A stretch of 64,000 nucleotides of DNA from a candidate division TM6 bacterium GW2011_GWF2_37_49 (GTDB lineage: Bacteria > Babelota > Babeliae > Babelales > RVW-14), in NCBI GenBank assembly GCA_000989955.1, contig LBTE01000005.1:22405-86404 (forward strand), given 5' to 3'. Each line of letters opens with the position of its first letter. Positions within the stretch are counted from its first letter, which is position 1. A program made the position numbers. Of this stretch, positions 52,901-55,900 are shown piece by piece.

Positions 52901-55900
52901 AGGCTTTTGCAATATCTCGATACGTTTTATTTTTAAAATCAAAACCGTTTAAAGACGGAATACATTTTTTATTAACTAATTTTTTCCACTCGACATGGGT
53001 CATGGAGTTAATGACGCTGATTCTTGGTGCGTTGCCCGTCGATATCCATTCATCAATAACCTTTGCGCTCACAGAATCAATTGCTTCTACTGATGCATTG
53101 CTTAACCCTATGATAAGTGTTGCGGCTATAAATAATCTTTTTAAATTAAACTTCATAATAACCCCCATCTCAAACAGCTAAAACAATTACTACTTGAAAT
53201 TAATTCTACCAGGGCTACCAATAAAGTCAATTTTAAATGATACTGTGTGAAAATATTGACTTTGTTTTGATGATTAAATTATAAATAAATGAGCATTTTT
53301 TATTTAATTCATTTAAAAATGGTCAAATTTAGGAGAAAAGAGATGAATTTTAGACTAAATTATTGTTTTTTGAGTTTTTTACTTATGTTCAACGTTTTTG
53401 CAGAGAAAAAGGCAGATTTTGTTGAAAATACAATAAAAACAAAAGAAGTAATATTTGGGCAAACGGGGACTTTGTCAGGACACCTTGGGCTTTACGGAAA
53501 TCTGATAAAAAATGCGATAAATGCATGTTTTAATAGAATAAATGAAAGCGGCGGGGTAAATGGGTACAAATTAAGGCTGGAGAGCTTAGACGATCACGGC
53601 GATCCTGTTTTGGCAAAAAAGAATATAATATCGTTGTTGAGAGATAATAAGATCGATATGTTTTTGGGCTGCACTGGAACCCGTTCGGTGTTAGGTGTTT
53701 TGCCCATGATAAAAAGTAAAAAGATAGCGATGCTCTTTCCGTGGGCTGGGCACAGTTCTTTGCGTGATCCAAGCTTGTCAAATATTGTTAACGGTCTTGG
53801 GGATCTTCAGCCGCAGCTTGAAATGATAGCTGAAAACGTTGTTAAGCAAAGAAAATTGAAAAAAATCGCAATTTTTCACGCGGATGATGATTTTTCAGTT
53901 GATGCTGCAAATAGTTTTGAAACGATTTTGCAAAGCTATGGCGTACAACCAACAAGCAAAGCAAGCTACAATCGAATGACTGTTGACGTGGTTACCAGTG
54001 CCGAAAAATTATTGGTTGCGGACCCCAAGGTTGTTGTTTGTATTTCTACAAGCATGCCCGCCGTAAAATTGATAGAACAATTTTTTAAGCGAGGGCACTA
54101 CGCAACGGAGTTTGTGGGGGTTGACTCAACCTTGTTTGTTGGCGATATTTTAAAAGATAAAGGGGCGCATTTTAGCTTTTCTTCATGTGTTCCTGACCCT
54201 AGACTTGATCAATCAGCAGTGGCAACACAATATCGTCAAGATATCGATAAATACTACCCAAACGATTCATATAATATTTTATCGTTTTCTTACTACATCA
54301 GTGCGTTAATAATTGTTGAGGCAATCAAAAATATCAAAGGTGATATAACAAAAGAGGCTGTATTAGGCCAAATTGAAGCTTTGAAAGTTTTTGATATTGG
54401 TGGATTTACAATAAATTTTGATGCAACAACTCGACATGCGTTTGGCATGAGTATATCAATTATAAATGGTTAAACTTTAGGAGTTAGCGATGTTTCTAGG
54501 ATTGGTTACGACTTTTAGGCTTACAAAAATTCAGTTGAGTTCACTTTTAATAACAATTATTTATTTAACCGGATTAACCTTTTTGCAAGATCGGCGTTTT
54601 ATTGCAGAAGATAAAGCTCCAAAGATTTACGCTGTTGACGAAAAAGTGAAGAGACTTGCTTCTGTGGTTCACGTTGGCATTCATGTAAACAGTTTTCCTG
54701 TTTTTTCATTCGATCAAGGCATTTTTACGATTGATGCGACGGTTTGGTTTAGATATCCTTCCGCAACAGAGGCTCTTGATTCTTTGGATCAGTTTACGTT
54801 GTATAACTCACTGATTCAACAAAACGGCAAATTATTGTATCGATCAGATCCAATAATAAAATTGATCGACGATGAAGTTTTAGTCTGCTACCACATACAA
54901 ACGACTTTTAAATTGACGGTTAACCACAAATACTTCCCAATCGGTGATCATACCCTTCATCTTCTTTTACAAAACAAAAGTGCAACGGCTCGGGAATTGT
55001 GTTTTGTTTCAGATCCGCAAAGCTTTTCGCTGTCCACAAATGTTTCGATTCATGAGTGGAAATTAAAGGATACACAAGTAAAAACTGGGTACGTACAATC
55101 CAATCTTCATATCGAAGACCCTGCTGCCCAAATATCTTATCCTGCTGCACTTTTTTCTATCGATTTTGAAAATGTAGGCTTTCGGTATGCTGGTGCGCTT
55201 TACCTGCCGATGCTAATAATTTTTTTGATAGGGCTGTTATCTTTGCTGCTTGGGATAGATGATCCAAGTAGGCTTTCTTTGATAACAGGTGCTGTGCCGT
55301 CGCTGGTGTTGTTCAGACTGGTGATCAATGCAGCGTCTCCGGTTGTTGGTTATGCTATGCACGTGGATCTTATTTTTTACATGTTTGTTATTTTACTGTT
55401 AATTGTACTGTTGTTTCAGGTTTATGTTGTTCTTACGATTAATCGAACAAAAGTTCTTGCCAAAGAGCTTTATAGCGCAGTGGTTGAAAAGCTTCAGTTG
55501 ACAAGCGATTTAGTCTTTTCATCGGTACTTTTTATGATGATGATTTTAGTTACTTACTCTTTTTATTTTTAGAGTGTGGTCTTAAAAAAAACCTGAGTTC
55601 GGGAATTAAAAAATTTTGAAAAAGACTTCCCTTAAAGGTAATCCAAACATTGCTCCATTCCAAAACATGCATATGCAGATTGATACATCGACTATGGCTT
55701 CTCGCATGCGGCTATTCATCAGAGCTACGAAGAAAATGATAATTTTTTAGACCCCGCCAGCAACATGCGATTGGATGTGGCTTGCCGAATTAAAATTTTC
55801 AAAATAAGTAAAAATGCCCACGATATTTACAGCTAGCTTCCAATCGTAGATTTACAACCAAACGCAAAAAGCTTTATTTTAGGTACTTTAACAACTTGGA

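Follow-up and report, generated by a model that had tools for sequence, protein, structure and literature searches.

A binding protein gene and a channel-like gene in one operon

The stretch of DNA analyzed here (64 000 nucleotides of contig LBTE01000005.1, referred to throughout as the window) comes from the candidate division TM6 bacterium GW2011_GWF2_37_49, a parasite-like member of the Dependentiae (TM6). Within it lies a two-gene operon on the plus strand, in which a gene for a periplasmic binding protein (PBP) is followed by a gene for a protein that resembles the ligand-gated ion channels of the pentameric type (pLGICs). The list of open reading frames (ORFs) in the window places the two genes at 53289/53343–54473 and 54490–55572. 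For the PBP gene, the ATG at 53343 is preferred over the listed ATG at 53289, as a Shine-Dalgarno sequence, AGGAG, can be read at 53331–53335 (+), 7 nucleotides before it. From the PBP stop codon to the channel start there are 16 nucleotides, and this spacer carries the channel gene's own AGGAG at 54479–54483 (+). Both ORFs are present as the original prediction had described them, including the 360-amino-acid channel ORF and the 16-nucleotide gap, and all of the channel motifs that it quoted occur in the translation. Conservation indicates that both are real genes and not chance ORFs, since the channel protein has 23 close homologues (40–90% identity) and the PBP has 76 further ones. A scan for promoters and terminators was uninformative, with site counts no higher than those in shuffled sequence.

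The first gene (53343–54473, +) encodes a type I PBP of 376 amino acids, of the LIVBP/HAAT-like type and predicted to be secreted. It matches Peripla_BP_6 with an E-value of 4.9e-37 and 128.8 bits (cut-off 31.7), over residues 56–384 of the 394-amino-acid version of the ORF that begins at 53289, and it also matches ANF_receptor (7.9e-13, Pfam). Its closest relatives of solved structure are 3lop (8e-20) and 4kv7 (3e-19), with LivK (1usg) at 2e-4, and a 376-residue database entry that it matches with 100% identity over its full length is named ‘Extracellular ligand-binding receptor [candidate division TM6 bacterium GW2011_GWF2_37_49]’. The N-terminus, MNFRLNYCFLSFLLMFNVFA|EKK, has a basic n-region, a hydrophobic core and the residues VFA before EKK, and its first 20 residues (MNFRLNYCFLSFLLMFNVFA, 53343–53402, +) read as a Sec signal peptide, which predicts export; no lipobox is found in this N-terminus. 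The earlier description of a type I PBP with a signal peptide is borne out by the profile match and by this n-h-c organization.

Comparison with LivJ of E. coli (query sequence identical to PDB entry 1z15) gives an hhalign probability of 97.8%, and allows the ligand pocket of the PBP to be read against the residues that we take, from the LivJ and LivK structures, to be the ligand contacts of LivJ. These positions map onto residues that are invariant or nearly so among 37 PBP orthologues: Y18 onto Y51, S79 onto T113, A100 onto W134, T102 onto G136, Y150 onto F184, Y202 onto S237 and E226 onto D261. Three of the contacts that LivJ-type proteins presumably make with an alpha-amino acid are thus kept as Tyr, Thr and Asp (Y51, T113, D261), whereas T102 and Y202 have become Gly and Ser (G136, S237). 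On this alignment the ammonium-binding side of the pocket is retained and the carboxylate-binding side is altered, and it is plausible that the ligand is a conserved small compound containing an amine. A search for riboswitches and other RNA elements that could hint at the ligand returned just one match, to the Rfam Histone3 stem-loop (55553–55598, −), which overlaps the channel stop codon and lies below threshold (26 bits, gathering score 34); it is probably a chance hairpin in A/T-rich sequence.

The second gene (54490–55572, +) encodes a protein of 360 amino acids that is a very divergent homologue of the pLGICs (Pro-loop receptors), as judged from profile matches and a predicted fold, with assembly as a pentamer and conduction being predicted properties. 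The standard models Neur_chan_LBD and Neur_chan_memb of Pfam give nothing for it at E ≤ 1, and even among 123 members of its wider family they reach E ≤ 0.01 in only 4 and 1 sequences, respectively. Other pLGIC profiles do recognize it. The NCBIfam model TIGR00860 (LIC) matches residues 212–319 at 6.9e-6, and a phmmer search of the PDB gives best matches at 1e-4 to the honeybee RDL protein (a GABA-A receptor beta subunit) and to a GLIC-GlyR chimera, spanning the YFP loop through to M3; nearly all of the remaining matches are likewise pLGICs. Signal grows as relatives are added: a profile of 24 orthologues finds GLIC at ∼1e-6 (84 hits), and a profile of 123 family representatives finds it at 3e-19, from the Pro-loop to M4 (224 PDB hits). 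Thus, of the HMMER matches that had been anticipated, the one for the PBP was obtained and the one to the Neur_chan models was not, while the assignment of the channel-like protein to the pLGICs stands on these other profiles and on its fold.

The AlphaFold2 (AF2) model of the single chain (pLDDT 79.5) consists of a helix at residues 13–36, a beta-sandwich at 58–228 and four helices at 230–359. In a Foldseek search of the PDB, this model gave 1107 hits at E ≤ 1e-3. All of the top 50 are pLGIC chains (GlyR, GLIC, GABA-A, GluCl, sTeLIC), aligned over ∼310–370 columns with E-values of ∼3e-15 to 2.5e-14. The first helix, an extra N-terminal transmembrane helix that we refer to as TM0, is encoded at 54526–54597 (+); the periplasmic beta-sandwich domain, which includes the Pro-loop YFPIGDH at residues 148–154, at 54661–55173 (+); and the four-helix channel domain at 55177–55566 (+). 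The helices of this last domain are M1 (230–250, with P240), M2 (260–286), M3 (289–320) and M4 (325–359) in the model, and HMMER alignments to GlyR and GLIC cover M1–M3. Two prolines mark the family in the expected places. P150, in the beta6-beta7 Cys/Pro loop, is invariant in the 24 orthologues and the 123 family members and aligns with the proline of the GLIC motif YPFD, while P240 of M1 is invariant in the orthologues, nearly so in the family, and aligns with the proline of the GLIC motif LPML. F149 is also invariant in the orthologues.

In the order of its parts, the protein is like GLIC, ELIC, sTeLIC and DeCLIC, with a beta-sandwich carrying a Pro-loop, then M1–M4 with a very short M3–M4 loop (only ∼4 residues in the AF2 model, so that there is no cytoplasmic output domain). 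The strongest likenesses are to GLIC, which is the best profile match, and to GLIC and sTeLIC by structure (Foldseek E ∼1e-14). It differs from the solved prokaryotic channels in having only ∼15% identity to them, in falling below Pfam thresholds, in its extra transmembrane helix, in several pore and coupling residues (G152/N228, a 9′ Pro and a 15′ Arg), and in being encoded next to a dedicated, separate binding protein gene. The accessory domain of DeCLIC, in contrast, is a fused N-terminal jelly-roll and not a PBP (PMC12664993).

The original prediction had spoken of an FPFD-like loop; the loop is present but reads FPIGDH, with Gly in place of the canonical Asp. The family signature is FP-x-x-DH, and most paralogues have FPFDDH. 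In the window channel, both members of the canonical coupling pair are lost, the Pro-loop Asp having become G152 and the position of the pre-M1 Arg of GLIC having become N228, while D153, H154 and R232 stay conserved. Most paralogues retain the pair, and across the 123 sequences the two positions covary: of 72 sequences with an acid at the first, 58 have Arg or Lys at the second, and of 33 with Gly, Ser, Ala or Thr, 28 have a residue that is not basic. The coupled change of two positions supports the alignment, which shows the classical coupling salt bridge to be replaced in the window's orthologue group.

M2 of the family reads YRFVIE..SP.VGY. With R261 as 0′ and P284 as 23′ (from the alignments), the 9′ position is P270 and not a gate Leu or Ile; it is Pro in 20 of the 24 orthologues and Thr in most paralogues, the family in general having Pro or a polar residue there. 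Hydrophobic residues are found at 13′ (L274) and 16′ (L277), and an Arg at 15′ is nearly invariant (114/123). The positions read for ion selectivity have an invariant Asp at −3′ and Asn or Asp at 19′, with no Glu at −1′. TM0 is conserved in sequence, with Y25 invariant in the orthologues, and, leaving aside paralogues truncated by the end of a contig, nearly all have matches to the family profile that start at positions 1–14. Both the conservation and the model suggest that TM0 is probably a retained fifth transmembrane helix, or uncleaved signal anchor, and not a cleaved signal peptide, which would be unusual among pLGICs.

The pairing across the Dependentiae

A scan of species-representative genomes gave 19 loci with close relatives of the channel gene, in which the PBP was sought by tblastn. 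All of the records with a meaningful name are metagenome-assembled genomes (MAGs) of Dependentiae, Babeliales or TM6. Eight loci (L009, L010, L012–L014, L016, L026, L027) come from MAGs titled ‘uncultured Pseudomonadota bacterium’, which looks like a mislabel given that the loci are of the Dependentiae type. In 17 of the 19 species-level Dependentiae genomes the channel gene is immediately preceded by the PBP gene in the same orientation, with gaps of 3–23 nucleotides where the genes have been called. The flanks of most of the relatives' pairs are SbcC and WaaA, whereas the pair in the window lies between ankyrin and leucine-rich repeat (LRR) genes and dcd-thyX. The pair persists while the flanking genes differ, which indicates that it moves as a unit.

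The pairing is set in a much larger family. An exhaustive search by profile gave 1334 representative clusters at E ≤ 1e-3, 316 of them at E ≤ 1e-30; all members with an informative NCBI name are Dependentiae or Babeliales. Eight of these clusters are channels fused to a C-terminal Peripla_BP_6 domain. In one of them (P0158, 767 amino acids) the PBP domain directly follows M4, in five (P0072, P0075, P0104, P0133, P0162) a metallophosphoesterase-like (Metallophos) domain stands between channel and PBP, and in the remaining two (P0143, P0164) Pfam reports the Peripla_BP_6 domain only. The fused PBP of P0072 aligns with the window PBP over its full length (27% identity, E 7e-35). Artefacts of gene calling were considered as a source of these fusions and rejected, as the ORFs are uninterrupted in several independent clusters and contigs.

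A further scan of metagenomes, made with an alignment of a 22-sequence subset, gave 74 loci (L029–L102) with 75 channel genes that have at least 600 nucleotides of downstream sequence. A partner containing a PBP was found for 57 of the 75, as a C-terminal fusion in 4 cases and as a directly adjacent gene in 53, of which 46 are downstream and 7 upstream only; no partner was found for the other 18. The 46 downstream partners start 3–210 nucleotides away (median ∼25) and are ORFs of ∼750 amino acids, in which the C-terminal half is the PBP and the N-terminal half resembles Ser/Thr phosphatases of the PPP type. Examples lie at L043:5858–8077 and L050:3103–5439, and in the fused proteins P0072, P0075 and P0104. 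The stand-alone partners carry signal peptides. Their phosphatase-like motifs are degenerate (GDLQG for GDxHG, GNIVERS for GDxVDRG, GKDE for GNHE), and this half looks like a periplasmic pseudo-phosphatase, to judge by its motifs. The window PBP has no such domain.

Some members of the family depart further from the simple arrangement. Six contigs (L031, L048, L049, L051, L091, L099) hold tandem arrays of 2–3 channel and partner pairs, which point to local expansion of the module by paralogues within single Dependentiae genomes. Seven proteins (P0043, P0047, P0050, P0051, P0053, P0063, P0066) have N-terminal extensions of 200–1250 residues with no Pfam hit, the protein P0051 reaching 1562 amino acids; the extension of P0066 looks multi-spanning, and that of P0043 is lysine-rich with hydrophobic stretches.

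With these searches, the three things on which the original prediction had staked itself, namely a pLGIC profile match, a compatible fold (a beta-sandwich and four helices, matched to pLGIC chains over the full length) and a gene neighborhood that is conserved, have all been found. The last of these was found in 17 of 19 species despite changed flanks, and is extended by paralogues in which both parts form a single polypeptide.

The PBP as a proposed sensor for the channel

Binding modules linked to bacterial pLGICs have a precedent. In 2005, Tasneem, Iyer, Jakobsson and Aravind described bacterial pLGICs with N-terminal PBP-I fusions, and operons in which pLGICs are accompanied by stand-alone PBP-II or Cache proteins (PMC549065). 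From these fusions and gene neighborhoods they proposed that the two modules cooperate in chemoreception (PMC549065). The type of evidence that they used, a conserved operon or fusion of a binding module with a channel, is found here in 17 of 19 species, in 57 of 75 paralogous genes and in the fused proteins. The original prediction was thus correct that PBP-fused bacterial channels had been reported. Its description of the split pair as unusual holds in part: operons with stand-alone PBP-II or Cache proteins have been known since 2005 (PMC549065), and it is the combination of a stand-alone type I PBP with a pLGIC that is new. The logic is the same as in the ART-LGICs of 2005, that of a periplasmic solute-binding module with a pLGIC. 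The differences are that the stand-alone partner here is of type I (Peripla_BP_6) and there PBP-II, that the fused PBP of the Dependentiae paralogues is C-terminal, after M4, and there N-terminal, and that most Dependentiae paralogues add the degenerate PPP-phosphatase-like domain.

The general idea of coupling between a PBP and a pLGIC is therefore one already predicted from genomes in 2005 (PMC549065). As read from the sequences, what is new is the pairing of a pLGIC with a type I PBP that stands alone, the C-terminal PBP fusions and the partner bearing a pseudo-phosphatase, together with the clade itself, which is large, spread over the phylum, invisible to Pfam, specific to the Dependentiae and previously undescribed. 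A literature search found no paper that links Dependentiae with ligand-gated ion channels, and ion channels are unmentioned in the genome paper of the Dependentiae member C. destructans (PMC6561590). Accessory domains of bacterial pLGICs are little known according to the DeCLIC papers of 2022 and 2025, in which the jelly-roll N-terminal domain of DeCLIC is the sole one characterized (PMC12664993), and, by the account of the papers cited here, experiments have yet to show for a single member that the binding module is physically and functionally coupled to gating (PMC549065, PMC12664993).

The orientation of the channel in the membrane can be deduced from its paralogues. The position of the PBP after M4 in the fusions, and the signal peptides of the split partners, suggest that the C-terminus of the channel is periplasmic. 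The beta-sandwich, four helices upstream, would then be periplasmic too, and TM0 would place the N-terminus in the cytoplasm. In the mechanism that we propose, the two genes would be expressed as one operon and the PBP exported to the periplasm, while the channel would be anchored by its extra N-terminal helix with its beta-sandwich and C-terminus in the periplasm. The PBP would capture a small solute from the host, most likely an amine or a compound resembling an amino acid, and the liganded, closed PBP would dock on the periplasmic domain of the channel, with one PBP per subunit as in the fusions. Docking would open or modulate the pore, so that a chemical cue is turned into a flow of ions or a shift of the membrane potential. 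For a transporter-dependent bacterium that is obligately intracellular, such a module would report on the host environment and would not steer motility. A role as a chemotaxis receptor, proposed in 2005, was considered and judged unlikely for intracellular Dependentiae from their lifestyle. Chemotaxis goes unmentioned in the C. destructans genome paper, where ‘flagell-’ occurs solely in reference to flagellates that serve as hosts (PMC6561590).

There are familiar cases in which a soluble PBP that has bound its ligand docks on a membrane receptor's periplasmic domain: MBP-Tar, GBP/RBP-Trg, LuxP-LuxQ, TorT-TorS and ChvE-VirA. Receptors of the MBP-Tar type are the closest mechanistic analogue of the proposed docking; their output is methyl-accepting or kinase signaling, and they have no homology to the channel. 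Ionotropic glutamate receptors (iGluRs) and GluR0, whose extracellular domains are LIVBP-like and PBP-II-like, likewise couple a clamshell of the LIVBP type to an ion channel, and the match of the window PBP to ANF_receptor is in line with this likeness. However, iGluRs have an unrelated scaffold, being tetramers with a P-loop pore and covalently attached binding domains, whereas the window channel is of the Cys-loop type and a predicted pentamer.

The pairing, conserved and sometimes fused across the phylum, suggests that the PBP probably acts as the channel's detachable sensor. That the operon encodes a binding-protein-coupled ligand-gated channel, with the periplasmic PBP as its accessory ligand sensor, is the account that we consider moderately probable; it includes the topology, docking, gating, ligand class and cellular role set out above. 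A bolder form of it would have the Dependentiae as a whole carrying an expanded pLGIC family that is obligatorily gated by a docking PBP, lengthened in most paralogues by a pseudo-phosphatase domain; this would be a true two-component channel that reads host metabolites and switches the physiological state of the cell. This form is possible and we hold it tentatively, as rather doubtful; if true, it would give bacteria a pentameric parallel to the way in which glutamate receptors use LIVBP domains.

Among the alternatives, the one closest to the sensor account is that the PBP enriches a solute or passes it to the channel, which would be gated at its own inter-subunit site. Tasneem et al. proposed this in 2005 for PBP and Cache domains found in fusions or in operons (PMC549065), some channels have no adjacent PBP, and the conserved aromatics of the ectodomain (W86, F87, Y117, Y201, Y217) could form a binding box. 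Yet loop C (residues 206–213) varies among the orthologues, which is unexpected for a conserved orthosteric site, and the paralogues in which the two are covalently joined 1:1 suggest that their structural relation is fixed and that the PBP is not a diffusible helper, so that we think this explanation unlikely. It is quite improbable, in our judgment, that the channel-like protein is not a gated channel at all and has been recruited as a PBP-dependent solute pore (‘feeding’) or as a signaling scaffold, with a pore that passes the substrate or is permanently closed. The 9′ Pro (Thr in paralogues), the 15′ Arg, the change of the Asp-Arg pair to Gly-Asn and the extra TM0 helix of the family would all suit such a protein. 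It nevertheless keeps the fold and the M1–M3 pattern of conducting pLGICs (prolines in M1 and at 23′, rings of acidic residues at −3′ and 19′), and it has no cytoplasmic output domain.

The PBP, or the partner with the phosphatase-like half, might also be a structural subunit that aids folding, stability or localization of the channel independently of any ligand. The degenerate phosphatase-like motifs suggest that scaffolding domains do exist in the system, but conservation in the PBP is highest at the residues equivalent to the LivJ pocket, which points to a maintained ligand site and leaves this explanation with a little less weight still. The least probable of the alternatives, and by our estimate a very improbable one, is that the genes are neighbors by coincidence, with the PBP serving an ATP-binding cassette (ABC) importer whose genes lie elsewhere and with no functional relation to the gene for the channel-like protein. 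Databases label the PBP ‘ABC transporter substrate-binding protein’, its family is HAAT/LivK-like, and Dependentiae depend on many ABC importers (PMC6561590). However, the pair is kept in 17 of 19 species though its flanks change, and in paralogues the two parts are fused into one polypeptide. Furthermore, the original statement that no ABC permease or ATPase lies nearby holds across the entire 64-kb window: none is found by Pfam among all ORFs of at least 120 amino acids, and a six-frame motif scan finds no LSGGQ-type ABC signature. The window PBP is of the same superfamily as LivJ and LivK, but no LivHMGF is found in these 64 kb, and its conserved neighbor is the channel gene and not a permease gene. 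Beside the pair in related loci, too, no ABC permease or ATPase occurs where the called genes were listed, and among the ABC systems given for C. destructans in its genome paper, which include pot and opp/dpp, there is no liv (PMC6561590).

A number of observations weigh against a PBP that acts as the channel's sensor. Two of the 19 species (L016, L026) have an intact channel gene with no PBP within view, and with the 18 of 75 paralogues that lack a neighboring PBP they indicate that the channel can exist without an adjacent one. The elements of gating are altered (Pro-loop Asp to Gly, pre-M1 Arg to Asn, Pro at 9′), which makes conduction only putative, and the aromatics W86, Y117, Y201 and Y217 suggest that the channel might itself bind a ligand. 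A mirror-tree comparison gave a correlation of 0.77 between PBP and channel and of 0.95 between PBP and WaaA (partial correlation 0.39), that is, no co-evolution beyond the species tree; because the WaaA control correlates better with the PBP, this result is not used as evidence. Docking of the PBP on the channel is itself something that we infer.

A sensor that is separate, soluble and easily purified would make this a tractable system in which to study how an external module couples to the gate of a pLGIC, and for structural studies nature supplies fusions in a single chain. The paired loss of the Asp-Arg coupling residues provides a natural experiment on pLGIC gating. The findings would also allow hundreds of Dependentiae ‘hypothetical proteins’ and ‘ABC substrate-binding proteins’ to be re-annotated as parts of one sensory module, one of a small number of clues to the way in which these parasites, which are unculturable, may sense their hosts.

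Other features of the window

Directly upstream of the pair are genes for a 1760-amino-acid ankyrin-repeat protein (45134–50416, −) and a 783-amino-acid LRR protein (50817–53168, −). Both look like effectors of the eukaryote-like kind, which is consistent with life inside host cells. The other genes identified by Pfam among the ORFs of at least 120 amino acids include those for a P-type ATPase, an ATP synthase subunit, thymidylate kinase and glycosyltransferases, as well as dcd, thyX, asnS and rplS. Three long ORFs, of 1842, 649 and 706 amino acids (10763–16291, +; 16369–18318, +; 29231–31351, −), have no Pfam match at E ≤ 1e-6.

Two paralogous AAA_14 + DUF4143 ATPase genes (33435–34589, +, and 35903–37258, +) lie ∼1.3 kb apart with a GNAT acetyltransferase gene between them. 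An 813-amino-acid ORF (41546–43987, −) contains two complete D-Ala-D-Ala ligase modules, with 2 N-terminal and 2 C-terminal Ddl domains. A 513-amino-acid protein (60938–62479, +) consists mostly of near-identical collagen-like GP.GP.G repeats (Collagen, 4e-39); the opposite strand carries long spurious ORFs. At the end of the window, in its stretch of lowest G + C content (0.33), lies an ORF (62974–63816, −) whose winged-helix domain is that of Rep3-type plasmid initiators (4.3e-9), and which may represent an integrated or plasmid-derived element.

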